A DNA stretch of 64,000 nucleotides from Rhodospirillales bacterium. GTDB taxonomy: Bacteria; Pseudomonadota; Alphaproteobacteria; Micavibrionales; Micavibrionaceae. The position numbers and the translations under genes were made by a program. Of this stretch, positions 24,720 to 54,600 are shown in pieces. Within the stretch, counting starts at the first letter, position 1. Each line of letters opens with the position of its first letter. The notes below the pieces were generated by a model, which saw only the letters and a program-made list of their open reading frames with translations, did no database searches and had not been told where the DNA came from. The stretch lies in NCBI GenBank assembly GCA_023898765.1, contig CP060238.1:428094-492093 (forward strand), written 5' to 3'.

Positions 24720-26006
24720 ATGGGAAAAGAAACGGATAAACCTATGCGAAGATTCAATCCATCTTCACCGGTTCGCATGGCGTATACGCTGAATAATCGG
24801 CAGCCCGTGCTTTGTACGCTCGTGAGCGACCAGCCCTATTTTTATATAGAAGAAGATATTTTTGACGATGATGAGAGCCTCTTTAACGACGGCTTTATGA
24901 GCGAATGTTTTAACGAGCTGGAAGGCGATATTGCGGATCTCAAACATAAGATTGAAGCTTACGAACGCCTGTCTTCAGAATTTACACAGCCCTCCGACCA
25001 GTCTTTTGAGGATTTTCTGGCTGACTCGAACCGAATTTGCGGTGCGTCTAATACGCATGTGGATCCAAAAGCCAAAGCGGAAGAAATCACCGCTGCGTTG
25101 AGGCACAGCCGGATGGCGCAGGCTTTGATGGGATGCGCAGAAGATCACGGCGTTGAAATTATTTGCAGCAACCATACAAAAGAAGCCGCCTATGACAGAA
25201 AATCCGGAAAAATTCTTATCAATCCGGATTTAATACATGAAGACCAGATTTTATTGGCGGCCAGGGAACTGCGGCGTCATTGGCAGTACCGTCAGGGCGT
25301 TTTGCTTCACCCGCTCAGTTTTCATCCGGATCAGGCTATTTTGATTAACCGGGCGCAGCATGCGGATTTGTCTATTTCGATGATCCGTATTGCCTGGGAA
25401 CTGCAACTGGCCGAATATAAAGAAACCTGGAAACGCATCGAAAATTCTTCGCTGGCAGATCTGGGCCGGGCCTTTGCCCGGGAAGCGTTTGTCGATTTTC
25501 GCAGCCTGAATAACGGCGCAGCATGTGCGGCTGTTTTCGAAGCGTGGTTTTTGTCCGAGCGCTGCCGCTACCATGATAAAAAACTGATTCAGATTATGCT
25601 GGCGGATTATCAGGGGCATGTTTTTGGCAGTCAGCAGGCTTCGCGCAATATTTCCATAGATCTTATATGTTCCCTGGGAGAGCAGCCCTTCGGCAAAAAT
25701 TACCTTTCCACCCATGCACAAATGATCCTGTCGGACCCTGTTTTTACCGAGATACGCGATCGGTCCAACGCTAATTTCCTGTGGTTTATCAAGTTCGAGC
25801 AGTCTTTTCGGGAAACGGAACGGCATTTGCAATCCTCCGATATCAAAACCGCCCCTGAAGATCTTGAGGGGCACATAATGAATACTCTTGAGGACCGCAA
25901 TCATGACTCCAACTCCGTTTCGCCCGCTTCTTCGGCAGGCTCAAACTCAAATATCGTCTACGTGTCCTTCGGCGCCCTGCCTGCAAAAAGGGACGAGGTA
26001 TTATAA
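24720..26006 (+). CDS. hypothetical protein, 428 aa (paralog A of a tandem pair)
   Basis: ATG 24720. The central region aligns by eye with the next ORF (RELRRHWQY...RAQHADLSISMIRIAWELQL versus LRTIWHEN...RTRAADADTLTVLVGWELRG). Confidence 0.55.
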   Translation: MGKETDKPMRRFNPSSPVRMAYTLNNRQPVLCTLVSDQPYFYIEEDIFDDDESLFNDGFMSECFNELEGDIADLKHKIEAYERLSSEFTQPSDQSFEDFLADSNRICGASNTHVDPKAKAEEITAALRHSRMAQALMGCAEDHGVEIICSNHTKEAAYDRKSGKILINPDLIHEDQILLAARELRRHWQYRQGVLLHPLSFHPDQAILINRAQHADLSISMIRIAWELQLAEYKETWKRIENSSLADLGRAFAREAFVDFRSLNNGAACAAVFEAWFLSERCRYHDKKLIQIMLADYQGHVFGSQQASRNISIDLICSLGEQPFGKNYLSTHAQMILSDPVFTEIRDRSNANFLWFIKFEQSFRETERHLQSSDIKTAPEDLEGHIMNTLEDRNHDSNSVSPASSAGSNSNIVYVSFGALPAKRDEVL

Positions 26007-26055
26007 TTGCACCGATTCAGAGCAGAATGAATCGTCTGGTGAGGAGTTTTTCGAC

Positions 26056-27102
26056 GTGAAATCAGAGCGCTTATCACGCAAATCCGGTCTCAGGAACGTA
26101 AGTGGAAAATCATTGTTTCCGGAAGGAGACGTTACGATTTTGCCTGCGCCGGTAACGCAGGATTTTGATCTTGTTGAAGAAGAAAACGGCGTCTTCCTCT
26201 CCAATATCGACGGCGCAAATATCAAGGCGTTCAGCAATATTGACGCCCTGCCTTATGCCTTCGAAACCACCCGCGATGTTTTAGACTGGGCCTGTGCCCT
26301 TTTGCATGAGAGTCCTTCGGCGCTTTCCTTTTTAAAGGAAGCGCAGAAGTCGGGATGGCGCGTCCGGTTGGCCGATTTACCGGAGGGCGGGTTTCATCTT
26401 GACACGCAGGCATGCTTACTGGAACTGGATCATGCCGGGTTTTCACCTGCCGTGATCGGACGCAGCGCTCATTTTCGCAACGCTCTCCTTATTTCTTTTA
26501 TCAAGGGTTTGCGCACCATCTGGCATGAAAACCGGCTGGAAGAGCCTGAATATAAATATACACCGGATGCTTTTCTGGCGCTGGAGCGCACCCGCGCTGC
26601 CGATGCGGATACACTGACTGTTCTTGTGGGGTGGGAGTTGCGTGGCGGCGGCTTTCCGGAATGCTGGCGGCAGATTTTAGGCTCGGACGACGGAGATATG
26701 GCGCTGGTTTTTGGTTGCGCCCTGGAGCGGAACCCTTCTTCCCTTTATAACGGAAAGGCGCTGAAAGAGGCTTTTATTCAATGGTATGAAGATGACTTGC
26801 GGGTGAATAGCAGCGATCATGCTGCGCTGGAGCGGCTTGATATGGCCCTCGAATCCTGTAGCGGCGCGGCAGGGAAAGAGCCACTGAAAGCGCGCACGAT
26901 CGAAGACCTTTCCTTGTTGCCGGATGGAACCTTATACCTGCGCGGCATGGGAAGCTCTGTTTTAAAGGCTCCCGCTTTTGCAGGGCTGGATGACCCGATC
27001 AATCAGGCGCATTTATTCCAGATCGTCTATGATACGAACGTCACCATGAGCGGCGGCGTCCCGTTTCGGGATTCCTCTTTGGCCAGAAAGATCTTTCCTT
27101 AA
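26056..27102 (+). CDS. hypothetical protein, about 348 aa (paralog B of a tandem pair)
   Basis: GTG 26056 with GAGGAG 9 nt upstream is preferred over ATG 25888, which would overlap the previous gene by 119 nt. The start is uncertain. Confidence 0.5.
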   Translation: MKSERLSRKSGLRNVSGKSLFPEGDVTILPAPVTQDFDLVEEENGVFLSNIDGANIKAFSNIDALPYAFETTRDVLDWACALLHESPSALSFLKEAQKSGWRVRLADLPEGGFHLDTQACLLELDHAGFSPAVIGRSAHFRNALLISFIKGLRTIWHENRLEEPEYKYTPDAFLALERTRAADADTLTVLVGWELRGGGFPECWRQILGSDDGDMALVFGCALERNPSSLYNGKALKEAFIQWYEDDLRVNSSDHAALERLDMALESCSGAAGKEPLKARTIEDLSLLPDGTLYLRGMGSSVLKAPAFAGLDDPINQAHLFQIVYDTNVTMSGGVPFRDSSLARKIFP

Positions 27103-30712: not shown

Positions 30713-30763
30713 ATATAGTAATATTGCTTAAGAACCGGACATTGCAAAAACCGGTAAATCGTT

Positions 30764-30860
30764 TTCACCACGAAGCTTAAGAAGCTGATGAAGAAACACG
30801 AAGCCGTTGTTTGAAGAAGAAAAACTTCGTGAAATTTCGTATCCTTTGTGGTCTTCGTGT
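30764..30860. repeat. palindromic intergenic element (CACGAAG ... CTTCGTG type)
   Basis: Two CACGAAG copies (near 30769 and 30797) face two CTTCGTG copies (near 30825 and 30853). Confidence 0.4.
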
Positions 30861-30889
30861 TATAGCCGTTCCGGTTAAGAATCCTGCAC

Positions 30890-30990
30890 TTTGTCATTCC
30901 CCGCCCCCGTTCGTGGCCGGGGGTAAACTCCGGCGGGGAATCCAGGGGAAAAAGCACTGGATCCCCCGGATAAACCGGGGGATGACGGTG
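30890..30990. repeat. nested palindromic (REP/MITE-like) element, GTCATTCCCCGCC type
   Basis: ATTCCCCGCC / GGCGGGGAAT and ATCCCCCGG / CCGGGGGAT hairpins nested between GTCAT and ATGAC ends. Confidence 0.5.
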
Positions 30991-31177
30991 AAGGAGGGTT
31001 AACGTAAAGGCGCGATGCTCTAACCCCCCGGTAATCCTTCGCCCGCCCAGCCGCCGCTTTTCCTTGCGCCAAAGCGGGGCATCGCTGCTCTCTCCCATCG
31101 GGAGAGGGGTTTTTCAGGAGAGGAGCGGCGGATGCGCCTTGAACCGTTCGTGATGCGGGGCCGGCCATCAGGGTGTT

Positions 31178-31316
31178 CCTTCCGTCATTGCGAGGAACTG
31201 CGAGCGCAGCGCGGCAGGACGAAGCAATCCAGAGTTTTTACTGGATTGCCGCGCTCCCGGCTTTGCAGGGCGAAGCCCGCTCCGCCGGGCAAAGCCCTGT
31301 CGCTCGCAATGACGGG
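31178..31316. repeat. palindromic (MITE-like) element with CCGTCATTGCGAG terminal inverted repeats
   Basis: CCGTCATTGCGAG (31182-) and CTCGCAATGACGG (-31315) termini. Inner hairpin GCAATCCAG-N8-CTGGATTGC. Confidence 0.55.
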
Positions 31317-31328
31317 GACGGCAGGTCT

Positions 31329-32642
31329 TTACGGCACGCAATCCATATAGAGGGCGTCATTCACCCCGAAGCCGTCTTTCCCGGGCGCACCGCTGAAAAT
31401 GCTGAGCCCGTCCGTGTCAACGCCCGTTCCAAAATTGGCATTTGCGGCCCCCACTATTATAGAATCTCTCGTCCATGTGGTGCCGGAGCGGGTAAAAATA
31501 TGGGTACGTCCGTTCTCACCGACACCAGATACGTAATATTTAGGCTCCCCAATAATCAAGAGATCGCCGGAAATACTGACATCATATCCGAAATTCGCGT
31601 TGGTGTACGGATCATCAGAAATCAGTTTGGCCTGCTGCGACCATGTGGTGCCGGAGCGGGTAAACACATAGACGCTGCCGGCGCCGCTCTTGCCACTAAT
31701 ATTATCGTTACTTGCCCCCACCACAACGGTATCGCCGGAAATCGCAAGCTCATTTCCAAAAACACCGGCGGGGGCGGGCGACGGGGTTAATGTGGCTTGC
31801 TCCGACCATGTGGCGCCTGCGCCGGTATAAACCCGGATGGTGTTGTTGTAGTTGGCGACGAAGGTATCCCCGTCGAGCGCAATTACTTTTCCTATGTAAT
31901 AGTTCCAGCTGGCGCCGGTCATGGTATATTGCAATGACCATACGCCTGCAGAACGGGTATAAACATAGATGCGCCCGAAATAAGACGGATCGCCGAAGCG
32001 GTTGTCTCCAGTTACGATTGTGTCGCCGTCAATTGCAACGTTCGTGCCTCCAAAAGAGTCAGGGATTCCAAGGAGCGCGGCGCCTTGCTGCGACCATGTG
32101 GTGCCGTTGTAATAATAGACGAATGTGCCGTCTCCTCTGCCGACGACGACTGTATCGCCGTCTATATCAACAGGTTTACGCCCTGATATTGCTGTCCCTA
32201 ACACCTGATTTTCGCTCCATACACCGCCGGTGCGCTTGAAAAAATGGAGAGGATAGCCGTTAGTCCAGTTTGTTGAACTAGACACGGCCCAGTTTCCGTC
32301 TACTGCAACAAAGGATCCAAGATAATTGTCATACGGGCTGCCAGTATACGCCAGATTTTGCTGCCCGCCTGTGCAGCAAGTCAGCGTTTCGATATTGAGG
32401 GGCGCGTTTTCGAGGAAGGAAGAGCCGCCGGTGCTCCATTCATTGGCGGTTTTGGTCGGCGCCATCAGGTCGTTGCCGCTGTTATTGGTAATTGCCGTGC
32501 AGACGCCGTGCTCGTTAATGGTGATGGTGCCCCCGTTGGGGATAACATATTCCTCGGCGGCCTGCGCGCCGCCCGGCAAAAGGGTCAGGGACGCCAGCGT
32601 GGCCAGGGTCAGAAACAAGGTTTTAAGATAGCGTTTATTCAT
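31329..32642 (-). CDS. secreted FG-GAP-like beta-propeller repeat protein
   Basis: Signal peptide ...LLPGGAQA. Six or more repeats of the form GDT[VI]VVG...G.VYVFTRSGTTWSQQAKL. Start overlaps the upstream gene by 8 nt. Confidence 0.7.
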   Translation of the reverse strand: MNKRYLKTLFLTLATLASLTLLPGGAQAAEEYVIPNGGTITINEHGVCTAITNNSGNDLMAPTKTANEWSTGGSSFLENAPLNIETLTCCTGGQQNLAYTGSPYDNYLGSFVAVDGNWAVSSSTNWTNGYPLHFFKRTGGVWSENQVLGTAISGRKPVDIDGDTVVVGRGDGTFVYYYNGTTWSQQGAALLGIPDSFGGTNVAIDGDTIVTGDNRFGDPSYFGRIYVYTRSAGVWSLQYTMTGASWNYYIGKVIALDGDTFVANYNNTIRVYTGAGATWSEQATLTPSPAPAGVFGNELAISGDTVVVGASNDNISGKSGAGSVYVFTRSGTTWSQQAKLISDDPYTNANFGYDVSISGDLLIIGEPKYYVSGVGENGRTHIFTRSGTTWTRDSIIVGAANANFGTGVDTDGLSIFSGAPGKDGFGVNDALYMDCVP

Positions 32643-33477
32643 GTTTCGGGCCTCCTTCTTTTAGGATGTCTATTTTATGGCGCAGGGCTTCAATCTGCGC
32701 CTGCTGCGCTTTAATCTGCACGTTCTGGGTTTTGACCGCCTCAATCAGCGGGGCGAGGAACTGGTCGTAATCCACGGCCTTCATGCCGGTGACCTCGTCC
32801 GTGTGGACAGCCTCGGGCATGACGGTTTCGACGTCCTGCGCGATCACGCCGTAAGCGGGGCTGCCGTCTTTTTTCCAGGTGTAATGTTTCCCGCTGATGG
32901 CTTCCAGCAGGTCGAACGGATTCGCAACCGTTTGAATGCTGTCTTTCAGCCGTGCATCGGAAGAGTGCAGGAACGTATCCGCCGTCACGGTGCCGGCATT
33001 GTTAATATCGTTTGTCGCCATATCAAGGTCTGTTGTGGCGGTATGGTTGCCCAGATTGTCCCCGGCCGGTATGTCGCTTGTGCAGTCGATGAACGTGCCG
33101 CCGGCATTGGCGGTGCACCATTTGGTGGCGGTCAGGGTGCCGACCTGCGGGTCGGTTTCCGAGGGCACGACGGCCTGCGCGATCCAGTCGGTGCCGTCCC
33201 ATGTCAGGACGTCGTTCACCACCTTGCCGCCGGTGCTGACATCCGAGAGATCGTCAAGAACGGATGGGGCGACGGCGCCGCTCATGCCAATCCAGTCCGT
33301 ATCGTCGCAATATTGCAAAACAGAGCTGTCGACATTATAGAGCATGTCCCCGGCCGCTCCGACGGGGTTTGCACAGGCGGCTTGCGCCGGCGTTGCGGAC
33401 AACATCGAGAAGGAAGAGATCGCGACGATCAAAGTAGCCGAAGCGGTCAGGAGCGTTTTAAACATATTGGTTCTCAT
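32635..33477 (-). CDS. secreted tail-fibre-like protein with C-terminal S74 intramolecular chaperone auto-processing domain
   Basis: Signal peptide ...SATPAQA. SSDARLKDSI (Ser and Lys+5) followed by ...GKHYTWKKDG..YGVIAQDVE.VMPEAV... and a C-terminal coiled coil. Confidence 0.8.
   Translation of the reverse strand: MRTNMFKTLLTASATLIVAISSFSMLSATPAQAACANPVGAAGDMLYNVDSSVLQYCDDTDWIGMSGAVAPSVLDDLSDVSTGGKVVNDVLTWDGTDWIAQAVVPSETDPQVGTLTATKWCTANAGGTFIDCTSDIPAGDNLGNHTATTDLDMATNDINNAGTVTADTFLHSSDARLKDSIQTVANPFDLLEAISGKHYTWKKDGSPAYGVIAQDVETVMPEAVHTDEVTGMKAVDYDQFLAPLIEAVKTQNVQIKAQQAQIEALRHKIDILKEGGPKHE
32682..33265. repeat. copy 1 of a ~580-bp direct repeat (3' halves of the two fibre genes)
   Basis: Collinear with 33509-34092 at a constant offset of 827 bp. 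Roughly 85-90 percent identity by eye, and near-identical over the first ~340 bp. Confidence 0.85.
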
Positions 33478-35012
33478 TCTTCTGCCTCCAGCGCGTCGAT
33501 GTCGCGCAGCAGGGCTTCAATCTGCGCCTGCTGCGCTTTGATCTGCCTGTTTTGGGTTTTGACCGCCTCGATCAGCGGGGAGAGAAGCTGGTCGTAATCC
33601 ACGGCCTTCATGCCGGTGGCCTCGTCCGTATGGACGGCCTCGGGCATGACGGTTTCCACGTCCTGCGCGATCACGCCGTAAGCAGGACTGCCGTCCTTTT
33701 TCCAGGTGTAATGTTTTCCGCTGATGGCTTCCAGCAGGTCGAACGGATTCGCAACCGTCTCGATATTGTCTTTCAGCCGCCGGTCGGACGTATGGACGTA
33801 AGACGTCGCGGTAATGGTGCCGGCATTGTCAATGTCGTTTGTCGCCATATCGAGGGCCATTGTCGCGGTGTGGTTGCCCAGATTGTCCATGGCGGGGCCA
33901 TCGTCTGTGCAGTCGATGAACGCGCCGCCGACCTCCGCCGTGCACCATTTGTTGGCGGTCAGGGTGCCGACCTGCGGATCAGTTTCCGTGAAGGGGTTCG
34001 CCAGAGCGATCCAGTTGGTGCCGTCCCATGTCAGAAGGTCGTTGAGGGCCTTGCCCGTCGTATCGACGTCACCCAGATCGTCAATGACGGCGCCGGAGGC
34101 CCCGCCTGTCGGCGCGGCAATGCCGGAGCGGTTTTCGGCGCGGAAGATATCTTCCATGTACAAAGTAGACTTCACATGCAGCGGGGACTGCATCTGGACG
34201 AAGGCCGCCGCGTTGGAATAAATATCGTCCGTTTTTATGGCCATGAACTGCCCGACGCCCGCAATGCCGAGGCCGGCGTCATAACCGATGGAGGCCGTGC
34301 CGGCCCCCTGGCTGCCCACGACTTCAATGTCCTTACCGCCGATTTCGGCGATTTCCGGCGATCCGCTCTTGAGATTCCACAGGCCCCCGGAGCCGGAAGC
34401 CGCCTCGGCATAGGTGTAGCTTAAAATCAGGTCGTCCGACCCGTTTTTGTTCACAGGGGTGGCTGTCGGATAGGCGTTACATACGGTCTGGAAAATCCGG
34501 TCCGGCCCTGCCGAAACAATGGCAAGTGCTATGCCCGTCTGGGTGTTTTCCCCGGCAAGACGGTTGTTGGCCGCAACCGGGTCAATACAGTCCGCGCCCG
34601 TATCGCCGATCGTGGTTCCGTGGTCCCAGACACAGTAGCCGTAATTGGTTTGCCACGGGTCCTGAAGCGCCGCGCCGATACTGGGGGGCAGCTGTCCGCC
34701 GCCGGTCGGGTTGGGGGTGGCAACGACAAACTGGATGGGCTCCACATGGCCGTCACTGTCGCAGTCCCCGCCGTTTGCCGCATTAGCCGAGGCCGTGAGT
34801 GAAAGTTTTCCAGAGGCAATCATGTTGTTTTCGGCAATCGTCCGTTTGGTAATTTCGGACATCGCGCGCACGGGGCCTTTCATCACCGTCATGGAAGCGG
34901 CCCCTACCGCGCCGACAAGAGCTACGGCGCCAAACATGGTGAAGAAAATGTTCCCGGATTCCCCCCATCTTGATCTTGCGCCGTTTTGTTTGTTGAAAAA
35001 CCGCTTTACCAT
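33474..35012 (-). CDS. membrane-anchored or secreted tail-fibre-like protein with C-terminal S74 intramolecular chaperone domain
   Basis: Start at ATG 35012 (MVKRFF...). N-terminal hydrophobic segment GNIFFTMFGAVALVGAVGAASM. TSDRRLKDNI plus a chaperone domain nearly identical to the downstream gene. ATGA overlap with it. Confidence 0.8.
   Translation of the reverse strand: MVKRFFNKQNGARSRWGESGNIFFTMFGAVALVGAVGAASMTVMKGPVRAMSEITKRTIAENNMIASGKLSLTASANAANGGDCDSDGHVEPIQFVVATPNPTGGGQLPPSIGAALQDPWQTNYGYCVWDHGTTIGDTGADCIDPVAANNRLAGENTQTGIALAIVSAGPDRIFQTVCNAYPTATPVNKNGSDDLILSYTYAEAASGSGGLWNLKSGSPEIAEIGGKDIEVVGSQGAGTASIGYDAGLGIAGVGQFMAIKTDDIYSNAAAFVQMQSPLHVKSTLYMEDIFRAENRSGIAAPTGGASGAVIDDLGDVDTTGKALNDLLTWDGTNWIALANPFTETDPQVGTLTANKWCTAEVGGAFIDCTDDGPAMDNLGNHTATMALDMATNDIDNAGTITATSYVHTSDRRLKDNIETVANPFDLLEAISGKHYTWKKDGSPAYGVIAQDVETVMPEAVHTDEATGMKAVDYDQLLSPLIEAVKTQNRQIKAQQAQIEALLRDIDALEAEE
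33509..34092. repeat. copy 2 of a ~580-bp direct repeat
   Basis: See copy 1. Confidence 0.85.
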
Positions 35013-35253
35013 GATTTTCTTCCCCAATGTCCCCTGATTGCTTTTGTCCCGTATACAAAGCACCATTTCATATGTTTACATAAAATTATTTAAATAAAAT
35101 TAACAAAGAATTTTATGTTTTAAGCGCAGAAAAATATTAAGCGCTTGATATAAAAAGAAAAACATAGAAAAAACGAGAAAAAAGGCGATATTTTGCCTGA
35201 TTACCCGTTGAGATTAACGGAAAAAATGGATTTTGGAAAGGATACAGGCAATC

Positions 35254-39711: not shown

Positions 39712-40023
39712 TTAAAAGGCGTTTTCAGGGGATCGGGCCGGTTCTGCGGGTCCTTCGAGCGCCGTTGGTGCGGTATTGCGGAACCCGCCTGTCAGGTCTT
39801 CCCTGTCTTCCATGGCGCCTTCGATCCCGCCTGCAGCTGCTTCAATATTGTTAAGATCGGCCGCAGTATCCACGGCAACCTGTTCTTTTGAAGACAAAGG
39901 CGGCGTTGCTTCGGCCATCACGGCGTCGCGCTGGGAAGAAATGCCGTTGTAGATTTTCATGGCCGGAAGAACCGTCAGGGAAAGTCCTACAAGGACCATG
40001 CATAAAAAGATAAAGCGTACCAT
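39712..40023 (-). CDS. small exported hypothetical protein, 103 aa
   Basis: Signal or anchor sequence MVRFIFLCMVLVGLSLTVLPA. GGGAGA SD that overlaps the stop codon of the upstream entericidin-like gene. Confidence 0.45.
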   Translation of the reverse strand: MVRFIFLCMVLVGLSLTVLPAMKIYNGISSQRDAVMAEATPPLSSKEQVAVDTAADLNNIEAAAGGIEGAMEDREDLTGGFRNTAPTALEGPAEPARSPENAF

Positions 40024-40035
40024 TGTAAATTCTCC

Positions 40036-40406: not shown

Positions 40407-42506
40407 TTAAACCCGTCTTTCATTTGTGCCTTGATGATACCCCCGGCTATGGAAGAAAGCCTGTAAGGCATCAAGCCTGGTTTTTATCTTCGCAAGCATG
40501 TTTTCCTTAAAGGACTGGTTATCTTCATAATTTTGTTCTGCTTCCGCACAAGCCTTCGCAAGCATGTTTGCTCCCAGATTCGCCGCCGCTCCTTTCATGC
40601 GATGCGCAGCCCTCTGCCAGTCTTCACTTTTATCATCCGTGCAGCTTTCTTCCAGTTCGCCGATGCTTAATTCCGTTTGTTTAAAAAACAGATCCAGCAA
40701 CTCTTTCTCCTCTTCGGGATCGCCATCGGTAAATGTTTCGAAATGCTTCATATCAACAGGCGGCTCCAGTTTTTCTTTTTCCGGCGTCGGTGAAGCATCG
40801 TTTGTCGTTTTATTTGAAATTTGTTTTTGTATGGCTTCAATGATTTTATCCGCCTTAACGGGCTTGCTGACATAATCGTCCATGCCTGCTTTCAAACATT
40901 TTTCCCTGTCCCCGATCATGGCATTTGCCGTTAAGGCTATAACAGGGAGATGCCTGTCCGTTCCCTGTTCTTTTTCCCGCAGGATTGTCGTCGCGTGATA
41001 GCCGTCAAGCACGGGCATTTGACAGTCCATCAGAACAACATCATAGGAATTGGCATCAATCATATCCAGAGCTTCCTGTCCATCATGCGCCAGATCAACA
41101 TAGGAAAAGCCGAGCTTTTTAAGCAGTTTTATAATGAAAACCTGATTTACAGGATGGTCGTCAACGGCAAGTATTCTGATATTCTTCCGTATCTCTTCGG
41201 TGTCATAGCTTTTGTCTTTGTCGAGAAGGTTCACCGGCTCCATATCTTCATCGGCTGTGCTCAGAGGCACCGTGAACCAAAATGTCGAACCCTGCCCTTC
41301 GACGCTATCAACGCCTATCTTGCCTCCCATCATATTGATAAGCTGCTGGGTAATGGCAAGCCCCAGCCCCGTTCCGCCGAATTCCCTTGTGACCGAGGTA
41401 TCGGCCTGCGTAAATTTTTCAAAAATGGCGTCTTTTTTATTTTCGGCGATTCCTATGCCTGTGTCTTTGACGGCAATGAACAGGTACGGTTCTTCTTTTT
41501 CAAAAGCGGTTTTCAGGAAAACGGTTACGCTTCCCTTTTCGGTAAATTTGATAGCGTTGCTTATCAGGTTTCTAAGGACCTGTTGTATTCTGCTGTAGTC
41601 GCCAATAACCGTTGAAGGCACTTTTTCATCGCGGTCAAGCGTTAACGCAAGCCCTTTGTCATTCGCAATAGGCAGGAATAGCTGGACAACCTGTTGCGCG
41701 GCGATTCCTATATGGAAAGGCACATTTTCGATTTCCAGCTCACCGGCTTCAATTTTGGAAATATCAAGTATATCGTTTAAAAGAGATAGAAGGTTTTGGC
41801 TTGAGCCATGCAGTATTTCAGCATTGTCTCTCTGATCCGGACTAAGATTGGAATCCAGAATAAATTCGGTCATGCCGATTATGCCGTTTAGAGGTGTGCG
41901 TAATTCATGACTCATATTGGCGAGGAATTCGCTTTTCGCAATGTTTGCAGATTCCGCTTTCTCCTTTTCTTCCCTTAACTCTTCTTCAAAAGATTTTCTT
42001 TCTGTGATGTTGCGTTCTATAGCGGCGAAATGAGTAATGTTTCCTCTTTTGTCTTTTACGGGAACAACGCTGATATCCAGCCAATAGGGGACGCCGTCTT
42101 TGGTATAGTTTTTTAATTCGCCTTGAAACGACCTGCCTTTGGAGAGGGATGTTTTTAAGGCATCGAGGACTTCCCGGCTGGTGTCTTCGCCTTGTAAAAT
42201 GCGCGGTGTTTTTCCTATGATTTCTTCGGCGTCATAGCCGGATATTTTTGAAAAAGCGCCATTAACATAGACGATTTTCGGCCCATTGTTCTCCAGATCT
42301 GCCGTCGTGATGACGATGGCATCGTTGGCGTTAATGACAGCCGCTTCCAGCAATCTGGCGTCTTCATGCAGCTGTTCGTTTAACGCATAGATTTCCCGGC
42401 TTTTTCCTTCCAATAGGGTTTCTGCCTCCTTCCGCGCTTTCTTTTCACGGGCGAGGCGTTTTTCCAGCCGGGAAATTTTCCTGTCTTTATCGATATCTTC
42501 ACTCAT
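40407..42506 (-). CDS. hybrid sensor histidine kinase (coiled coil-PAS-HisKA-HATPase-REC-HPt), HnoK-like
   Basis: H-box MSHELRTPLNGI, G2 GTGLGLAI, REC ILAVDDHP...VLMDCQMP, HPt AAHRMKGAAANLGA. ATG 42506 forms an ATGA overlap with the H-NOX stop. Confidence 0.9.
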   Translation of the reverse strand: MSEDIDKDRKISRLEKRLAREKKARKEAETLLEGKSREIYALNEQLHEDARLLEAAVINANDAIVITTADLENNGPKIVYVNGAFSKISGYDAEEIIGKTPRILQGEDTSREVLDALKTSLSKGRSFQGELKNYTKDGVPYWLDISVVPVKDKRGNITHFAAIERNITERKSFEEELREEKEKAESANIAKSEFLANMSHELRTPLNGIIGMTEFILDSNLSPDQRDNAEILHGSSQNLLSLLNDILDISKIEAGELEIENVPFHIGIAAQQVVQLFLPIANDKGLALTLDRDEKVPSTVIGDYSRIQQVLRNLISNAIKFTEKGSVTVFLKTAFEKEEPYLFIAVKDTGIGIAENKKDAIFEKFTQADTSVTREFGGTGLGLAITQQLINMMGGKIGVDSVEGQGSTFWFTVPLSTADEDMEPVNLLDKDKSYDTEEIRKNIRILAVDDHPVNQVFIIKLLKKLGFSYVDLAHDGQEALDMIDANSYDVVLMDCQMPVLDGYHATTILREKEQGTDRHLPVIALTANAMIGDREKCLKAGMDDYVSKPVKADKIIEAIQKQISNKTTNDASPTPEKEKLEPPVDMKHFETFTDGDPEEEKELLDLFFKQTELSIGELEESCTDDKSEDWQRAAHRMKGAAANLGANMLAKACAEAEQNYEDNQSFKENMLAKIKTRLDALQAFFHSRGYHQGTNERRV

Positions 42507-43045
42507 TGTTTTGTTAAGGTAAAGATCCTGCAAAACTGACCTTCGGTGTTTTTATCTTCACCTTCGATTGTGATGTTTTCCTTGTAAAAATCGGCGCAGC
42601 CCTGCATCAAGCCATGTGCAAAATCGGCAAAAGGGCACTGGGACCTGTAGGTCATTTTTAGCACGTTTCCGTTTTGCCTTTCCGTTTCAAATGAAGGGAG
42701 AACGGCATCCGGATAGAGCTTTTTTACTTCCACGTGAATATAGTCGTGCACGCCTTCCAAAAATTCAAAGGCGGATTTTTGTTCTTCGAACAGTTGGGGC
42801 ATCAGTTTATTGAAACGGAAGAAAAGATGATGCCCGTATTTATAGACCAGATCCCTGACACTCAGTCCGGAATGCTTGCTAAGGGTGCCGACGATTTCGA
42901 GCAGCTCCCGATGATCATAGGTGCCGACGGCCGTATAGGCCCCTCCGGACTCAAGATCGCAATCGTCAAAGACGTCATCCATCATGTCCTCGCCAAATGT
43001 TGCTTCCACCATATCAATAAGCTCTGTGAAAACGATTCCCTTCAT
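42503..43045 (-). CDS. hnoX: heme-NO/O2-binding (H-NOX) sensor protein
   Basis: MKGIVFTEL..., proximal-His region VHDYIHVEVKKLYPDAVLPSF, and MTYRSQCPFADFAHGL (a YxSxR-type motif with Cys in place of Arg). 180 aa. Confidence 0.88.
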   Translation of the reverse strand: MKGIVFTELIDMVEATFGEDMMDDVFDDCDLESGGAYTAVGTYDHRELLEIVGTLSKHSGLSVRDLVYKYGHHLFFRFNKLMPQLFEEQKSAFEFLEGVHDYIHVEVKKLYPDAVLPSFETERQNGNVLKMTYRSQCPFADFAHGLMQGCADFYKENITIEGEDKNTEGQFCRIFTLTKQ

Positions 43046-43089
43046 TGCGTTACCTTTCCTTTCGAAATATTCACAATCTATCCTAAAGT

Positions 43090-43944
43090 CTAACCTGAAT
43101 GGTTTTGTATGTAATGCAGTAATTGCTCTTTCAGGAACGGCTTGGCGATAAAGCCGCTGGCGCCTTCTTCCAGCGCTTCGGCGATATTGTCCAGATTATT
43201 ATTGCTGCTGAACATAACGACACATAGGCCCGGGTCGTTGCGCATAATCCAGCTTAATACTTCACGGCCGTTCTTATCGGGTAAATCAATATCCAGAAAA
43301 ACAATGTCGGGCTGAAAAGAGTGAATTTTGGAAAAGGACTTGTTCGCCGTCGCCGCCGTGACAAGATCACAATCATGTTTGAGGCTTTTTCTTACCATCC
43401 AGCGCGTAACGGGATCGTCCTCGACCAAAAGAACCCTTGTTTGTCCTTGTCTGTTTTTGTTGGTTTTGACAGCGAACGTTCCTATGTCCGGCGCCCCTTT
43501 TTCATCAGGAAAGGCGTAAAGATCGGCATAAGCCGAGGCGGAAACCGAAAGGCTTTCATCCTCTTGTTTAAGCGCGCGCCGAACATATAAAGGCCCCTCC
43601 TGTTCCAGATCATAAATGGCAAGCGCGCTCGATAACGAAGTCTCGTCTTCGATTATATGGCGTATCTGTTCACCGGCCTGGGCCAGAGCGCGTTTTGATA
43701 CGTTCTTGCAAAAAAGATGGATCTGGAAATTTTCACAAAAAAAGACCTCTCCTTCTATCTCTTTGAAATACGATTGTAACAGGGGCTGTATTAAAGGGAT
43801 GCAGCCTGAAAAGGATGCCTTGTCGCCTTCTTCGTCCAATTCGATATGCAGGCACCTCCAGTCCTGCCAACTCAAAGGGGTTTTGCCGATGGATGTAATA
43901 ATTTGAACCAGTCTTTTGTCTTTTTTACCGGATTGAATATCCAT
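43090..43944 (-). CDS. response regulator: unrecognised N-terminal domain + C-terminal receiver
   Basis: REC RVLLVEDDP...IVFLDIDLPD...GFIAKPF at the C-terminus. Start set at ATG 43944 (MDIQSG) with an AGGGGGAAGGA SD. Confidence 0.8.
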   Translation of the reverse strand: MDIQSGKKDKRLVQIITSIGKTPLSWQDWRCLHIELDEEGDKASFSGCIPLIQPLLQSYFKEIEGEVFFCENFQIHLFCKNVSKRALAQAGEQIRHIIEDETSLSSALAIYDLEQEGPLYVRRALKQEDESLSVSASAYADLYAFPDEKGAPDIGTFAVKTNKNRQGQTRVLLVEDDPVTRWMVRKSLKHDCDLVTAATANKSFSKIHSFQPDIVFLDIDLPDKNGREVLSWIMRNDPGLCVVMFSSNNNLDNIAEALEEGASGFIAKPFLKEQLLHYIQNHSG

Positions 43945-44848
43945 TTCCTTCCCCCTTTTGTTTTGCCTGAACGAACGGTGATTTTTCGATGTATTGGAAA
44001 AGCTTCTCCTTTGTAAAAGGTTTGACGACAAATCCTTTGGCGCCCTGCGCGACAGCCTTTAAGACATTTTCCCTGTCTCCCTTACCGCTCAGCATGACCA
44101 CATAAGCGTCAGGATCAATTTCAAAGATTTTTTTCAAAACATCGTGGCCCGTAATGTCAGGAAGTCCGATATCCAGAAAAAGAATGTCGGGCGCTTTGCC
44201 CGCGTAAGTCATAATGGCTTCACGGCCGTTTTTGGCCGTAAGCACATAATGTTCTTTGCCGAGGGCGTTCTTAATCAGCCGCTGCGAAAATAAATCGTCT
44301 TCAACAAAAAGGATTTCAGGGACGTCCCTTGCAGAGCGTCTGGACGATAATGTGGATATAAGCTTTTTTTCAATTTCTATATCCAGAAGTTTTTGCCGGT
44401 ACAGTTCCGCCTCTTTTTCGGCTTTTTGCTGTGCGCGTTTGTTTTTTTCGATTTCACTATTTTCAATTTTACGGGCGCAAATGGGCTTGAGCGCTTCCAG
44501 ATCAACCTTGATTTCATAAAGAAAAGCCAGATCCTTCGAAAACAGAGGCCGGGAGAAGGGGGCAGGCGTAAGTTTGGCGGCTAAATGGGCTAAAAACCGG
44601 CCGAGGTTTTTCTTGGTGATAAACTTTGTCAAAATAAACACGTCGTTATCGTTGCAAAGAAAAACCTCCCCCGCTTTATCGTCAAAAAAGGCATCAAGTT
44701 CTTTTATGAAGGGCTGAAACCATTTTTGTGACTCAATGCCGGATTGAGAGAACTTTAAATAAAGGCATCTTTGCGATGTGTTCTTTTTCCAATGGTTTTG
44801 AATAGAGTCAAACAAGGACCTTTCGGCATCTTCTTTAACAATTTTCAT
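43925..44848 (-). CDS. response regulator: unrecognised N-terminal domain + C-terminal receiver (paralog of 43090-43944)
   Basis: REC ILFVEDD...ILFLDIGLPD...GFVVKPF. The N-terminal ~190 aa is paralogous to the neighbouring gene. Confidence 0.8.
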   Translation of the reverse strand: MKIVKEDAERSLFDSIQNHWKKNTSQRCLYLKFSQSGIESQKWFQPFIKELDAFFDDKAGEVFLCNDNDVFILTKFITKKNLGRFLAHLAAKLTPAPFSRPLFSKDLAFLYEIKVDLEALKPICARKIENSEIEKNKRAQQKAEKEAELYRQKLLDIEIEKKLISTLSSRRSARDVPEILFVEDDLFSQRLIKNALGKEHYVLTAKNGREAIMTYAGKAPDILFLDIGLPDITGHDVLKKIFEIDPDAYVVMLSGKGDRENVLKAVAQGAKGFVVKPFTKEKLFQYIEKSPFVQAKQKGEGNGYSIR

Positions 44849-44891
44849 CTCGACTCCCTTCCGTTAAAATAAGTTTTCATAATATCTTTAT

Positions 44892-44907
44892 AGCAACCGG
44901 CATGCCA
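44892..44907 (-). promoter_or_regulatory. sigma-54 (-24/-12) type promoter
   Basis: Minus strand reads TGGCAT-GCCGG-TTGCT versus consensus TGGCAC-N5-TTGCW. It lies 44 nt upstream of ATG 44848. Confidence 0.6.
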
Positions 44908-45080
44908 AAATTTTTGTGCTTATTTTTCAACGGCTTATGCGAATCCTTCCTTAAGTTATTCTCATTTTGAAACGTTTTATTTTGATAATTTTTATGCATA
45001 AATCTCAAATTAGAACGCTTTTTTAATCTTTATTTGTTAGCCTGATGACAGGGGTAAAAACATTTCGGGAGACCAGCCAT

Positions 45081-45986
45081 ATGTCCGATTCAATCCTGAT
45101 CGTTGAAGATGATCCTATGCAGCAAAAAATGCTTGGAACGTTGCTGCGCCGGAAAATCGGGTTTGAATCACAAGTCGCCCCTAACGGGCGGGAGGCTTTG
45201 GACATTCTTGGCAGGGATGACAAAAGAGCTATAAAGCTTGTGATTCTTGATATTGACATGCCCGTTATGGGGGGGATGGAGGCTCTGGAGATTATGGCGC
45301 AGCGTTATCCGGGCCTTCCCGTCATTATGCTGACGGGGACCAGGGATATTGAAGAGGCGGTCAAGGCGATCAAGCTTGGCGCTATCGATTTCATGACCAA
45401 GCCGTATGAAGGGGAAAGGATGGCAATAACGGCTAAAAATGCTCTTAAGCTCAGCATCCTTTCTAAAGAAGTAAAACGGCTAAAAAACGAAAAGGAAGGC
45501 CACTATAGATTTGACCATTTAATAGGCCATGACGGCGGTCTGCAGGAGGCCGTTAATATGGGGCGCAAAGCCGCAGCATCTGACATACCCGTCCTTATTT
45601 CCGGAGAGACAGGCGTTGGAAAGGAAGTGTTCGCCCAAGCCATCCACGGGGAAAGTGCGCGCTTGGGAAACCCGTTTATCGCCGTCAACTGTGGCGCTAT
45701 TCCGGCACAGCTCGTTGAAAGCACCTTGTTCGGACATGAAAAAGGGGCTTTTACCGGCGCAACAGATAAGGCCACAGGCAAGTTCCGCGAAGCCGAAGGG
45801 GGCACGATTTTTCTGGATGAAGTGGGCGAGCTTCCACTGGATTCCCAGGTAAAGCTCTTGCGTATCCTTCAGCAAAAAGAGGTTGAGCCTGTCGGGGCAA
45901 GCAAAGCCGTTCCTGTAAACATACGCGTTTTATCGGCGACCAACCGCAACCTTGAAGAAGAAGTCAAGGCAGGAAACCTTTGTTAA
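45081..45986 (+). pseudogene. NtrC-family sigma-54-dependent response regulator, 3'-truncated
   Basis: REC (ILIVEDDP...ILDIDMP) + AAA+ (GETGVGKE, GAFTGA, IFLDEVGE). It ends ...EEVKAGNLC* where homologs continue FREDLYYRL. The rest of the AAA+ module and the HTH are absent. Confidence 0.8.
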
Positions 45987-46472: not shown

Positions 46473-46535
46473 ATAAACTGTGGAATTCTAAGTGTTTTCC
46501 GCTCACGATTGTATTCAACCCAGATTTTGTTCGAT

Positions 46536-49500
46536 ATGCGCTTGCCGGGAAAACAGTTTAGACATTTTACCACTGGACTTATGTTCCTTTTGCTCATCCC
46601 GCTCCACTGGGGATTTTCGGCAAGCCCGGTCAATGCAGGGGAAACTTCATCCTCTCTGGTATTTCAAAAACTTGATAATATTGATCCCGAAGCCCTTTCT
46701 CCTGAAGAAGCGAAAAGCCTGATTCGTGAACTGAAAAGTTTGGCGCAGAAAGAGGAGGCGGCTTCTTCTTCATTATATAAAAGCACCCCTTATCCCAAAA
46801 AAGAGCGTGAATACAGCGCGTGGGAGCGGCGTATCGCGCAGGAAGTCATTGCCACGGGGCAAATGCTGGAGGGCGACCCCAGATTTGATGATGTGGTGTC
46901 CACGTTGGCGCAGCGTGGTCGCTCGATATTGCCGGATGGTTCTAACGTGACGCAGGACTGGGTGCGGGAGAATTTGCAGGATGTTTTACCCGCGATTGAT
47001 AATAAAATGGCGGCAGCGGCGATGAATGCGGCAACGGGAGAGATTGCCAGAGGAACCGGCGACATGGCGAACGGTTTTGCCCAATCACAGATAGGATCGC
47101 AAATTGGCTTATCCGGGGAAGGGCAAAGCTATGATCTAGGCGGCAATCTTAAACAAACGGCCATTCGCAGCGGCCTGGAAGGGGTAAAGGCAGCAGCGTC
47201 GGCAAGCGATATTTATGCTCTGAATCACCTGGAACTGGAATACTCCCTTTCGGGTGACGGAATTGATGAATACTCGGTTTTAACCGTCCAACCGCTCTGG
47301 GACAGTGCCGATTTGCGTCATAACATTTTCGCGCAGGCTTCCTACGCCAACAAACAGGTTGAAGATATAGGTGCGGATACAAGCCAGCGCCGCGATACGG
47401 TGAATGCCGGGCTTGCTTACCGCTACATTACACCAGATGAACAGCATATGTTCGGGGCCAATGCCTTCTTCGATCACCAGTGGCCGTATCACCATAATCG
47501 CATGTCGTTGGGGCTGGATTATAAAACCAGCCTGTACGGTGTGGCGTTCAATAAATATGTCGGCCTGTCCGACTGGCGCGGACGTGATGACGGTTATGAA
47601 GAAAAAGCATTAGGAGGTGAAGATCTGGAAGTTTCGGGGCGTTTGCCCCAAGCCCCGGAACTGGAAGTGTTTGCCAAGGGCTATCATTGGAGTCAGGAAA
47701 AGACACCTGTTATCAATCCGGACGGGGACGATATATGGGGCTATCAGTTTGCGGCGGAATACACGCCGGTGAATGCCTTTACGATCCGTTCCCAAGCGAC
47801 AAGAGACAATGAAATGGACGATATGGAAGGGCAGATTACCATGCGCCTGAATTATCGTTTCGGGCAGGGATGGGATGATTTGTGGAAGCGCCCGACTTAC
47901 AATCTTGATTCCGTTCTGGATCGGCGTTTTGAGAAAGTGCGCCGGAACAATGAAATACGGGTACAGGTGCGTCAAGACCCTGATGTAACGGCGCGCGTGA
48001 CCTTTGCACAAGGGGCAAATGTCAGTGTCGGGCAATCTCTGGCCTTCGGCACGACGATTACGACCGGCGGCGCGGGCGGCGACGGAGCCACGGTAGTCTT
48101 CGGCAACGGCGCAAGGCTGGATGTGGGACAAAATACGCAAGTGCGGATTGAAAAAGACCAGATCGTCCTGATTACCGGGATTATACAATTCACCAGCGGC
48201 AGTGGCGGCATAACGGTTATTGCCGTGCCGGGCGGTACAATCGACCTGATAGGAACGGACGTGGATGTGCGCGTATCGGGCGGCACCACGACGCTGCGGG
48301 TGCGTGATGGCGCAGCGGACTTTACAGACGATACCGGTACAACGCGCGTGAATACGGAAGAACTGGCCGAAGCACAGGATGGGGATGGGCTGGCACCGCA
48401 AATCCGCGCCGAAGGTACGGCCATTTATGAGACACATACAAGTGAAGCGCACACGCAGCTTGATCTCGTCGGCCCGCAGCCTTCCAATCCGAAAGCCGCG
48501 CCTTTTGCCGATGAAGCGGTCAGTGTGGCCGGCACGCTGGCTACGGGCAATACACTGACCTTTACCGTGCCATTGACGGGAAGCGTCACGGTCACCGGAA
48601 TGCCGAGGCTACGCTTTACCCTGGGCGGTCTGGATCGTCTGGCCGATTATGCGAGCGGCAGCGGCACATCCACGCTTGTCTTTACTTATGATGTTGTGGG
48701 TGCGGATGAAACATTGTCCAATATCGTTGCCGAGGAAATCGAGAAGAACGGCGGTACGTTGACCGGCACAAACGGCGCGCCGATGGTGCGGACGGTCAGC
48801 GGCGGATTGTCCGGCACGGTGCCGGATGTCACCATGCCGACGATTGCAGGCTTTACGGCGGTATCGAGCGGCGGCGACCCGGCAGGAATTGGCGATATAA
48901 TCACGGTGACATTAAACGCGAATGAAGACCTTGTGCAAAGCGGCACGCCGAGCTTAACGCTGAATATTGGTGGCACGTCCCGCACCGCGAATTTCTCCGC
49001 GATCAATGCCGGTAACGCCGAATTTACCTACACGGTGCAGGCGGGGGACAATGACGCGGACGGGATCACGATTACCGCGATCACTGTGGCGGCGGATGAG
49101 CTGGAGGATGCGTCCGGCAACGATCTGGATACGACATTTGCTCTGCCACATAATTTAAGCCTTGATGTAAGCACGATCCTTCTAGGTCTTTCATCTTGCC
49201 CGTCCGGTGATTTGTCCGCCCCGGCCAATTCAGGCTGTGCGCGCCTGTTTGGGGCGGATCCCACGGATATGGATGATGTGATGGTTTATGCCGGGGATGT
49301 ACCGGGCACAACCACGGACTTCTTCGTGCGCCGCTGTGATCTGGGGCAGGACTATGACCCGGTTGACGACCGCTGTGAAAATGGCGGCGGCGATCCGAAT
49401 ACCAGAGATACGATGCAATGGAAAAATGCCAATACGGAATCCGACACAACGAATATAGGAACGGGTACGGCTTGGACAAATGTAAATGCCACGGATGGCC

Positions 49501-52222: not shown

Positions 52223-52443
52223 GGTATTTCTCCTTTTTGCTTTGGTTAGGTTAAAAAGTGCGTGTCGCACTTCTTTCCTATGGGCCGCGCAGCGGCTTCT
52301 AAGCGCCAGGATCCGTCAAGCTTGAAACCCTTCGTAGAAGGGGCAGGCGAAATTTTATTGTCTTTCCTAGCTTGCGACGGAAAGCAGTAAAATTTTCGGC
52401 TTTCGGGCTTTACGGAGACAGGCAAGAGAAAAAACAAAAAAGC

Positions 52444-52495
52444 CCTTAAACCCCAAAAATTGGAATCATCCCTTCCTTAAACCCCAAAAATTGGA
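52444..52495 (+). promoter_or_regulatory. two perfect 21-bp direct repeats (CCTTAAACCCCAAAAATTGGA), 31-bp period, upstream of fic
   Basis: Copies at 52444-52464 and 52475-52495. The second ends 25 nt before ATG 52521. Confidence 0.6.
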
Positions 52496-52520
52496 TAAAG
52501 TGGCCTTGAAAGGATTTTTA

Positions 52521-54023: not shown

Positions 54024-54113
54024 TTTTTGGGGCGCTCTGGTGCTGTTGAACGTACCAGAGGGCAATTTTTTTTCGTGAGAACGACGAGAGAGCATGTTTT
54101 TTCACCTGAAAAT

Positions 54114-54578
54114 TCAATATTTGTTGCTTTTTCGCCATTCTCGCGGCGTTTGAAACGTCCCGCCCCATATACCTCTTTTGCCGATTTGAGCCTGATCCTG
54201 GGCGGCAGCGTAAAATCCATGACTGAAATATCTGTAGTCAATAGCCCACCCGCCGCGCACCATGAGATCGGCAAGATCGTCGCCAGCAACGAAGCATTGC
54301 GCCACAGTACGGGTTTCGCTTTTGGCGCGAGGCTTCTCCTGACATTGCAGCTCGTCCGGGTCAATCAAGCTGACCAAGTATTCGCGTGCCTGCCGGCCAC
54401 ACGGATATTCCCGGCCGTCTTGCCAGCAGAATTGATGCAGCTCCACGGCGTCAATCCCCCAGAGCCGGATTTCCCGCGTGCCTAAAACAAAACTGTCGCC
54501 GTCTTTGACGTAGAGTTTTGTACCCGCCGCGGCCGGATATAAAAATCCTGAAAGCAGCAAACAACCTAAGAAAATCAC
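54114..54578 (-). CDS. thermonuclease (SNase-like) family protein
   Basis: ...VKDGDSFVLG.REIRLWGIDAVE...GRQAREYL...YRYF pattern. GTG start. The N-terminal signal peptide is possibly clipped by the upstream junction. Confidence 0.75.
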   Translation of the reverse strand: MIFLGCLLLSGFLYPAAAGTKLYVKDGDSFVLGTREIRLWGIDAVELHQFCWQDGREYPCGRQAREYLVSLIDPDELQCQEKPRAKSETRTVAQCFVAGDDLADLMVRGGWAIDYRYFSHGFYAAAQDQAQIGKRGIWGGTFQTPREWRKSNKY

Positions 54579-54600
54579 AATCGGCAGGAATCGTGTTAAT

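Follow-up and report, generated by a model that had tools for sequence, protein, structure and literature searches.

The closest described counterparts of the locus analyzed here are the mosaic adhesive trimer (MAT) fibres of Bdellovibrio bacteriovorus (Caulton et al., 2024, PMC10769870) and the modular type IV pilins, represented by PilB and PilC of S. sanguinis (Raynaud et al., 2021, PMC8179133). The N-domain of the MAT fibres was proposed to bind a component of the producer's own envelope, and autoprocessing of the S74 domain was shown experimentally for the non-phage Bdellovibrio fibre Bd3182 (PMC10769870). Among the modular pilins, the combination of a prepilin motif with S74 was already catalogued, and CofB was named as one of their number (PMC8179133). 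The locus is an operon of three minus-strand genes at positions 31329–35012 of a 64,000-nucleotide stretch of contig CP060238.1 from a Rhodospirillales bacterium of the Micavibrionaceae, and the whole of this stretch is referred to as the window. On balance, we leaned towards the view that the operon is a cellular, non-phage, modular envelope adhesin apparatus in a conserved slot after secB, with gene 1 being pilin-like.

The trimeric tip minor pilins CofB and TcpB of the type IVb class, with the secreted partner CofJ, and PilV of R64 join a pilin domain to a trimerising, beta-rich adhesive tip. In these systems, a separately secreted partner docks by its N-terminus, and a constant N-terminal region is followed by variable C-termini. 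These proteins have Glu5 and are encoded inside pilus operons, and we know of none among CofB, TcpB and PilV that uses an S74 chaperone. The concept is shared with the gene 1 set, and the likeness is conceptual rather than drawn from sequence.

Organization of the operon

The sequence-only reading had described three overlapping genes for tail-fibre-like secreted proteins and a propeller. The three open reading frames were found as claimed, with successive overlaps of 4 and 8 nucleotides (nt). The genes and their parts are as follows.

33474–35012, minus strand: gene 1, 512 amino acids (aa) from MVKRFF, ATG at 35012 (the open reading frame could reach 35066); putatively pilin-like N-terminal module, short fibre shaft and S74 intramolecular chaperone
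34953–35012, minus strand: gene 1 leader (residues 1–20), basic and hydrophilic, ending in Gly20
34881–34952, minus strand: gene 1 hydrophobic tract NIFFTMFGAVALVGAVGAASM... (residues 21–44), start of a predicted 55-residue helix
34218–35012, minus strand: gene 1 N-terminal module, or N-module (residues 1–265), helix plus beta-rich head with four invariant Cys
33789–34217, minus strand: gene 1 shaft and tip (residues 266–408), which would remain after the predicted autocleavage
33477–33788, minus strand: gene 1 S74 domain and C-terminal helical tail (residues 409–512), SDRRLK at 33771–33788
32635–33477, minus strand: gene 2, 280 aa; Sec signal peptide, Cys-loop module, fibre and S74
33379–33477, minus strand: gene 2 Sec signal peptide, AQA↓A, assigned by eye
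33280–33378, minus strand: gene 2 Cys-loop module
32962–33279, minus strand: gene 2 fibre
32638–32961, minus strand: gene 2 S74, SDARLK at 32944–32961
31329–32642, minus strand: gene 3, 437 aa; signal peptide, recurrent N-terminal module and FG-GAP_2 region
32559–32642, minus strand: gene 3 signal peptide, AQA↓A, assigned by eye
32343–32558, minus strand: gene 3 recurrent N-terminal module
31332–32342, minus strand: gene 3 FG-GAP_2 repeat region

The ATG of gene 1 at 35012 is preceded by a GGGGAAG ribosome-binding site. P0001, a "tail fiber domain-containing protein" from a metagenome-assembled genome (MAG) of the Alphaproteobacteria, is 99% identical to gene 1 and is also annotated with 512 aa. 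An exact database look-up of the gene 2 protein returned no record, and NCBIfam contained no family for any of the three operon proteins.

Phage-like modules at the C-termini

Hidden Markov model searches supported both domain assignments of the sequence-only reading. Pfam Peptidase_S74 (PF13884) matched gene 1 at 56.1 bits and gene 2 at 53.8 bits (cutoff 22) over the full profile (1–58 of 58), with a Pfam span of residues 409–461 in gene 1, and FG-GAP_2 matched gene 3 at 99.5 bits (Pfam cutoff 23) in three stretches. The hallmark Ser and Lys residues were also present as described: the Ser-Lys dyad lies in an SDxxxK motif, as defined in PMC10769870, at the start of each S74 domain (SDRRLK, residues 409–414 of gene 1; SDARLK, residues 173–178 of gene 2), and GKHYTWKKDG, YGVIAQDVE and MPEAV follow downstream in genes 1 and 2 alike. 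Both fibres are predicted to trimerise, and their S74 domains to cut themselves off. Residues 302–509 of gene 1 and 66–273 of gene 2 shared 77% protein and 85% DNA identity, which indicated that the fibre tip and the chaperone were duplicated inside the operon.

PHROG tail-fibre and baseplate families matched gene 1 at residues ~380–510 and gene 2 at ~100–270 (best E 4e-28), and one of them, phrog_1980, spanned residues 202–510 of gene 1 and so reached into the shaft. No PHROG match to gene 3 was obtained. The closest solved sequence to the C-terminal part of gene 1 was 6f45, the distal subunit of a phage long tail fibre (E 5.5e-8). Judged by these matches, the phage resemblance is limited to the C-terminal 120–230 residues of genes 1 and 2. 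Their C-terminal S74, catalytic dyad and fibre repeats are shared with phage tail fibres and tailspikes (endosialidase, T5 pb1, S16 gp37-type). Unlike those fibres, the proteins of this operon have no virion-attachment domain, carry secretion or anchor signals, and are encoded at a conserved housekeeping locus free of phage genes.

Matches of this strength to phage fibre families, a domain typical of phage fibres and a phage fibre as the closest solved relative are what would be expected of a degraded prophage, tailocin or contractile-injection-system remnant, in which fibre genes were kept by chance or as leftover cargo. However, capsid, tail, sheath, tube, baseplate and integrase genes were all absent within ~15 kb of the operon, in agreement with the lack of phage context claimed earlier. 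The reading frames are intact and overlapping, and genes 2 and 3 have secretion signals, which phage virion proteins do not need. Two further lines of evidence against a remnant, the distribution of the N-module and the conservation of the locus, are given in the next two sections.

A cellular family defined by the N-module

No model in Pfam or NCBIfam matched the N-module. When homologues of gene 1 were searched for, most strong matches covered its N-terminal half and had other C-termini: the N-module (first ~265 residues) was present in 88 of 120 homologues, and 66 of these 88 were without S74. A profile built from the trimmed alignment A2 and searched against 1.84 billion cluster representatives recovered 1,083 proteins at E<1e-3, of which 708 passed E<1e-30. 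In every case the module was N-terminal, in proteins with total lengths of 217–6,785 aa. S74 is a minority option, carried by 27 of 201 family members and by 14 of the 52 aligned members. The other C-terminal modules in the 52 aligned members were Phage_T7_tail, Shufflon_N, Gp34_trimer, Gp10_C, Gly_rich_2, TSP1 thrombospondin repeats, Lcl_C and Hint. The Shufflon_N matches were considered as a sign of PilV-like N-termini, and this was rejected because Shufflon_N sits in the C-terminal fibre parts.

The leader has a median length of 18 aa in the family, and Gly20 is invariant in alignments A1 and A2. The hydrophobic tract, of ~21–23 residues, belongs to the best-conserved parts, with F27, V33, G34 and G37 conserved in ≥90%. 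The head is marked by the motifs DPW, C-x-WDHG, SAGPDR and GSDD, and the trimmed alignment contains an invariant GPV together with the four invariant Cys. A hydrophobic anchor had been proposed for the N-terminus of gene 1; a conserved hydrophobic tract is indeed present, and it is the start of a conserved cellular module of ~265 aa.

A tblastn search of the N-module against 50,697 phage records gave no match, and no structural match to it was found among the predicted viral structures of BFVD. A search of PDB sequences with the family profile returned a single match, a fibre, which fell in the C-terminal columns. The absence of the N-module from the phage records and the viral structure library again argues against a phage remnant. 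From the distribution of the N-module it therefore follows that gene 1 is a member of a large cellular family in which phage fibre parts are one C-terminal option. The family is large and appears to be undescribed; the literature searched gave no account of a Micavibrio fibre family or of the N-module. The earlier proposal of domesticated phage fibres thus stood for the phage-like S74 C-termini but not for the N-module, which is cellular and has no phage match, and, rather than domesticated phage fibres, the set is better seen as a cellular family of modular adhesins into which phage fibre modules were recruited.

In function and logic, the nearest characterized system is, by analogy, the Bdellovibrio MAT family. 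Each family is chromosomal and non-phage and has a conserved N-terminal module with variable phage-like tips, and both include S74 members with SDxxxK as well as members with other termini. MAT comes from a predatory bacterium, and the lineage of the window was counted as such by its relatedness to Micavibrio. The two differ in phylum and in the N-terminal part: MAT fibres are described as having a cleaved signal peptide and a beta-rich N-domain of ~130 aa, whereas a hydrophobic helix and a Cys-rich head make up ~265 aa here. Moreover, the family studied here occurs in operons with partner proteins that bear conserved N-terminal modules of their own.

Conserved position beside secB and recurrent partner modules

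The operon lies between the dnaQ and secB blocks, as first proposed, with maf-aroE-coaE-dnaQ on one side and secB-fxsA, a Tim44-like gene and mltA on the other. Beyond the dnaQ side are parA, mnmG, mnmE, rho, hemH, hemE, two DUF6782 genes and a kinase of the PPDK-regulator type; beyond the secB side are a Wzy_C gene and then an H-NOX/histidine-kinase/response-regulator group. The neighbourhood is a housekeeping region of an alphaproteobacterium.

A scan of one genome per species yielded 79 family loci. Most of them were in MAGs labelled Micavibrio, "Pseudobdellovibrionaceae" or unclassified Alphaproteobacteria, and NCBI taxonomy places Micavibrio under Pseudobdellovibrionaceae. The others belonged to Hyphomicrobium, Mesorhizobium, Nitratireductor, Stappia, Stella, Brucella gallinifaecis, Falsochrobactrum and Aquamicrobium. 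In about 19 species-level loci, mltA-tim44/fxsA-secB was followed directly by an N-module gene, the SecB proteins being 42–56% identical to that of the window, and in L001, L009, L014 and L037 dnaQ-coaE was found beyond the variable genes. The secB-adjacent position is old and conserved. No prophage was found at this slot in the relatives (19 loci), and L001 and L002 had no phage-type neighbours either. Gene order kept across species whose SecB proteins have diverged this far is not what a remnant would leave, and we considered that explanation very improbable; the operon is a genuine feature and no phage remnant.

The genes after the first gene of the secB slot vary; their products include a 1,142-aa lectin/LVIVD protein, a 1,479-aa RCC1/WD40/BNR protein, LamG-like and collagen-like proteins, and further fibres. 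Elsewhere in Micavibrio-like genomes, two or three family genes form tandem arrays. Among the neighbours that recurred around the 79 loci were housekeeping genes, a serine recombinase, ArdC and DUF6782. In the window, two tandem DUF6782 genes for putative metallopeptidases lie upstream of the maf-dnaQ block (24720–27102, plus strand); in several Micavibrio loci (L062, L067, L069), this pair comes directly after three N-module genes in tandem, which hints at a further conserved neighbourhood.

The partner genes also recur. The mature N-terminus of gene 2, the Cys-loop module, has the consensus AACTNPAGSAGDIIYNSTENVMQYCDGTDWIAMGGA and starts 22 signal-peptide-bearing proteins encoded downstream of family genes on the same strand, and one elsewhere; the passenger domains of these proteins are mutually unrelated. 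The same module was found fused inside 15 N-module proteins, often right after the N-module. This pattern of fused and split forms speaks for joint action of the two kinds of protein. The N-terminal module of gene 3 (the first ~75 mature residues) begins four genes downstream of family genes, in L009, L017, L037 and L056. With these recurrent N-terminal modules, the operon looks like three conserved "bases" with exchangeable "heads", and genes 2 and 3 are, as far as the sequences indicate, not arbitrary partners of gene 1.

Possible relationship of the N-module to type IV pilins

A class III signal consists of a hydrophilic leader ending in Gly or Ala, followed by ~21 mainly hydrophobic residues (PMC8179133). 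Gene 1 agrees with this definition, with the invariant G20 followed by a 21-residue hydrophobic tract, NIFFTMFGAVALVGAVGAASM. In an AlphaFold2 model made with the family alignment (pLDDT 81), a helix at residues 22–76 was followed by strands at 125–130, 161–167, 176–188 and 195–200, and this predicted helix with a beta-rich head would match the "lollipop" shape of pilins (PMC8179133).

Comparison with GspG gave a weak similarity with moderate statistical support. Alignment with hhalign against 16 GspG sequences paired the leader, the Gly and the helix (probability 43%, E 2.5e-4) and put G20 of gene 1 on G(-1) of the GspG prepilin cleavage site. After removal of the transmembrane part, the head scored 30.0 against the GspG head, compared with 12.5 ± 2.5 (maximum 18.3) in 60 column shuffles; this head-to-head alignment paired DPWGxxY and SAGPD. 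A permissive hhalign run placed residues 12–196 of gene 1 collinear with residues 1–136 of GspG, and a run against GspK of E. coli gave nothing. When the head-only model was compared by Foldseek with 350,542 PDB chains, the top match was 3fu1, the major pseudopilin EpsG of V. cholerae, at a non-significant level. GspG/EpsG and the N-module thus have the same order of leader-Gly, hydrophobic helix, DPWGxxY and SAGPD(G/R) in the head. They differ in that the N-module has large insertions, four conserved Cys, no Glu5 and no Phe at +1, and that it precedes hundreds to thousands of extra residues.

The sole plasmid match of the family, L084, came from a conjugative plasmid of Rhodoferax ferrireducens T118 (NC_007901.1, 569–16459). 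It encodes a 1,049-aa protein whose head is homologous to the N-module head (hhalign 99.2%, E 1.7e-19), and this is the last large gene of a cluster resembling a type II secretion system (T2SS) or type IV pilus (T4P). The cluster includes two secretins, a T2SS/T4P ATPase, a GspF-family platform protein and three small pilin-like proteins; the latter have N-termini of the form KG↓F(M/I)(N/L)A..., no Glu5 and no Pfam N_methyl match. Genes for a phage tail-fibre assembly chaperone, a sulfotransferase and an APS kinase lie 3′ of it. The cluster may be an uncharacterized filament type. With hhalign, nothing significant linked the N-module to the three pilin-like proteins, and a homologue search with the head fragment of the Rhodoferax protein gave no matches, while against plasmids it found only itself.

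Several points weigh against the pilin-like reading and the apparatus built on it. The Foldseek match to 3fu1 had an E of 3.8 and a TM score of 0.42 on the target, and Foldseek with the full 300-residue N-module model against PDB found nothing meaningful. The hhalign probability for GspG was only 42–43%, and the 52 members contained no match to Pfam N_methyl or T2SSG. In 180 members, Glu never occurs at position +5, which is taken by A, M, T or V; position +1 has Asn or Ser. The 64-kb window contained no type IV filament genes, and none recurred within 10 kb of the 79 loci when all neighbours were clustered. Signal peptidase I may cleave after GAA(39), and the N-terminus of the Rhodoferax homologue is more like an ordinary Sec signal peptide. 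In addition, predation by the organism was taken solely from the names of related MAGs, and trimerisation, autocleavage, surface exposure and the binding target are predictions from sequence.

A number of these observations would fit surface fibres of the MAT kind with no link to a pilus. In that case, the hydrophobic segment would be a signal peptide or anchor, the head would bind the cell's own envelope, and the trimeric fibres of genes 1 and 2, together with the propeller, would decorate the outer surface by another route. The lack of the N_methyl motif, of Glu5 and of nearby pilus genes agrees with this, as do the GAAS in the hydrophobic tract as a possible signal peptidase I site, the Sec-like signal of the Rhodoferax homologue, and the MAT precedent of a conserved N-domain with variable tips in S74 and non-S74 subfamilies. 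However, a highly conserved tract of ~21–23 residues is unusual for a cleaved signal peptide, and the invariant Gly stands exactly at its start. The predicted helix runs on to residue 76, the GspG similarity is collinear and above the shuffled controls, and the Rhodoferax homologue occurs in a T2SS/T4P-like context. We regarded pilus-independent fibres as a possible but less probable explanation. That the N-module is a divergent type IV pilin or pseudopilin-like domain, as the sequence and model comparisons suggest, is the leading but unproven interpretation.

With that interpretation, the modular pilins would be the nearest architectural concept, again by analogy: a small N-terminal pilin module bears a grafted functional module, presumably shown at the filament tip. 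Unlike them, the N-module family is without the canonical IPR012902 motif, which the survey required (PMC8179133), and without Glu5; because the motif is lacking, the family was not captured by that survey. For Micavibrio aeruginosavorus, genes of a type IV pilus were reported, together with a T2SS without annotated pseudopilins (PMC3189940). This gene content is compatible with the pilin proposal and is not evidence for it.

Family genes on conjugative elements

At the Rhizobiales-type loci, the family gene lies beside a divergent serine recombinase, ArdC, a TraG/VirD4 coupling protein and a relaxase, and by this gene content the loci are conjugative elements. The serine recombinase (Resolvase, 6e-43) was encoded divergently just upstream of the N-module gene in loci of the Rhizobiales type and some others (L004, L007, L008, L017, L027, L031, L040, L055, L056 and L059), a placement that recalls the Gin/Cin invertases beside phage fibre genes. 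A search for inversion sites at the 3′ ends of the recombinase-linked family genes gave weak candidates only, such as 12724–12746 and 14213–14235 in L059 (78%). In the window, a ParB-like protein (600 aa), a Fic-domain protein and a TrbL/VirB6 homologue are encoded at 50468–55928, which suggests that an integrated conjugative element begins ~15 kb from the operon.

These contexts raise the question of a mating-pair adhesin of a conjugative element, which would select recipient cells as a functional analogue of the R64 PilV shufflon adhesin. The neighbours of the family gene at the Rhizobiales-type loci, the plasmid location of the Rhodoferax homologue, the Shufflon_N-type modules of some members and the TrbL, ParB-like and Fic genes at 50–56 kb of the window are in line with it. 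However, the operon itself lies 15 kb away from the transfer genes, at a housekeeping site that is conserved across many species, with no recombinase adjoining it, and the mobile-element loci yielded no convincing inversion sites. For the window operon, a mating adhesin is therefore unlikely, and the envelope adhesin apparatus was kept as the preferred reading.

Proposed mode of action

In the apparatus that we favour, the N-module of gene 1 would insert in the inner membrane through its class-III-like N-terminus, and the protein would be extracted into a type IV filament or onto its tip; otherwise it would serve as an envelope tether. The head would be disulfide-bonded and beta-rich. The C-terminal part of gene 1 would fold as a short homotrimeric fibre of phage type with the help of the S74 intramolecular chaperone, which would then cut itself off at Ser409 by the Ser-Lys dyad of SDRRLK and leave the tip exposed. 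Gene 2 would be a Sec-exported paralogue that presents the same fibre and chaperone on a Cys-loop base, and gene 3 a Sec-exported FG-GAP beta-propeller that acts as a third binding unit with its own recurrent N-terminal module. The conserved N-terminal modules would dock the three proteins into one assembly, and their variable C-terminal parts would bind to prey or to the surfaces of other cells.

It is plausible that the proteins act as exported adhesive fibres. The most likely binding targets are surfaces of other cells, because the lineage is related to epibiotic predators and the copies on mobile elements lie among conjugation genes; as the lineage is Micavibrio-like, prey recognition is a reasonable guess. 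We speculated further, and tentatively, that the family is a class of non-canonical type IV filament subunits (Gly↓Asn/Ser, no Glu5) that bear trimeric phage-type fibres and passengers of up to 6,785 aa at the tip, with Cys-loop and propeller partners docking in trans via their conserved N-terminal modules. Such a class might be the prey-recognition apparatus of Micavibrio-like epibiotic predators, of an origin independent of MAT but convergent with it, and exchanged with Rhizobiales conjugative elements. As to its kind, the operon is best filed under S74-chaperoned adhesive fibres or modular pilin-like adhesins, which are known; the undescribed N-terminal module, the secB-adjacent slot and the recurrent partner modules are new here.

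Intergenic regions and other genes of the window

Two intergenic regions flank the operon.

35013–35253, no strand: AT-rich region between secB and gene 1, GC 0.39–0.43 against ~0.6 in the genes, the presumed promoter site
30713–31328, no strand: downstream region with short nested palindromes, arms of 9–13 nt

The AT-rich character of the upstream region was as reported by the sequence-only reading, and a consensus scan for promoters and terminators placed no site in 35013–35253 and gave no sigma-70 match there. The same reading had placed a cluster of palindromic repeat elements downstream of the operon. Short palindromes do occur there, but the claim was somewhat overstated: the repeat tool detected none with arms of 14 nt or more in this region. 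A 134-nt element at 31182–31315 has a 13-nt terminal inverted repeat, CCGTCATTGCGAG, and an internal hairpin, GCAATCCAG...CTGGATTGC; it is present in a single copy in the window and may be a small mobile element or one similar to repetitive extragenic palindromes. A terminator-like hairpin at 31088–31108 was found on the plus strand only. Scans of the window for tRNA genes and Rfam families gave no matches.

A second, unrelated type of adhesin is encoded at 46509–49862 (plus strand), where the 1,117-aa product has an inverse-autotransporter beta-domain (IAT_beta, 1.3e-32) and a FecR-like region and ends in Lcl_C, a module that also occurs at the C-terminus in the N-module family. At 40407–45986, beside the conserved Wzy_C gene, are an H-NOX (HNOB) sensor, a hybrid PAS histidine kinase with Hpt, two response-regulator proteins and a sigma-54 activator. 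L003, a MAG contig that is 99% identical, carries this set as well. A conserved protein of ~103 aa (MVRFIFLCM...; 39715–40035, minus strand), found in 11 related loci too, and a 43-aa entericidin-like peptide always precede the Wzy_C gene near the locus. The ~103-aa protein was considered as a pilin and, when checked, was not pilin-like. Between a dienelactone hydrolase gene and rho, an open reading frame of 535 aa (17145–18752, plus strand) had only a weak, sub-threshold match to Anti-TRAP (zinc-ribbon-like).

Implications for attachment in alphaproteobacterial predators

We know of no described mechanism by which epibiotic predators such as Micavibrio recognize and hold their prey, and to our knowledge the sole characterized family of predator fibres is MAT, from an unrelated phylum. 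With a fixed chromosomal position, swappable tips and recurrent partner modules, the genes described here are concrete candidates for attachment factors in alphaproteobacterial predators. If the N-module is a true pilin, the display capacity of type IV filaments would widen to trimeric phage fibres folded by a self-cleaving chaperone, and motif-based surveys would miss a whole class of subunits lacking Glu5. The combination of a cellular base with phage-derived tips is a clear case of module exchange among phages, conjugative elements and chromosomes.

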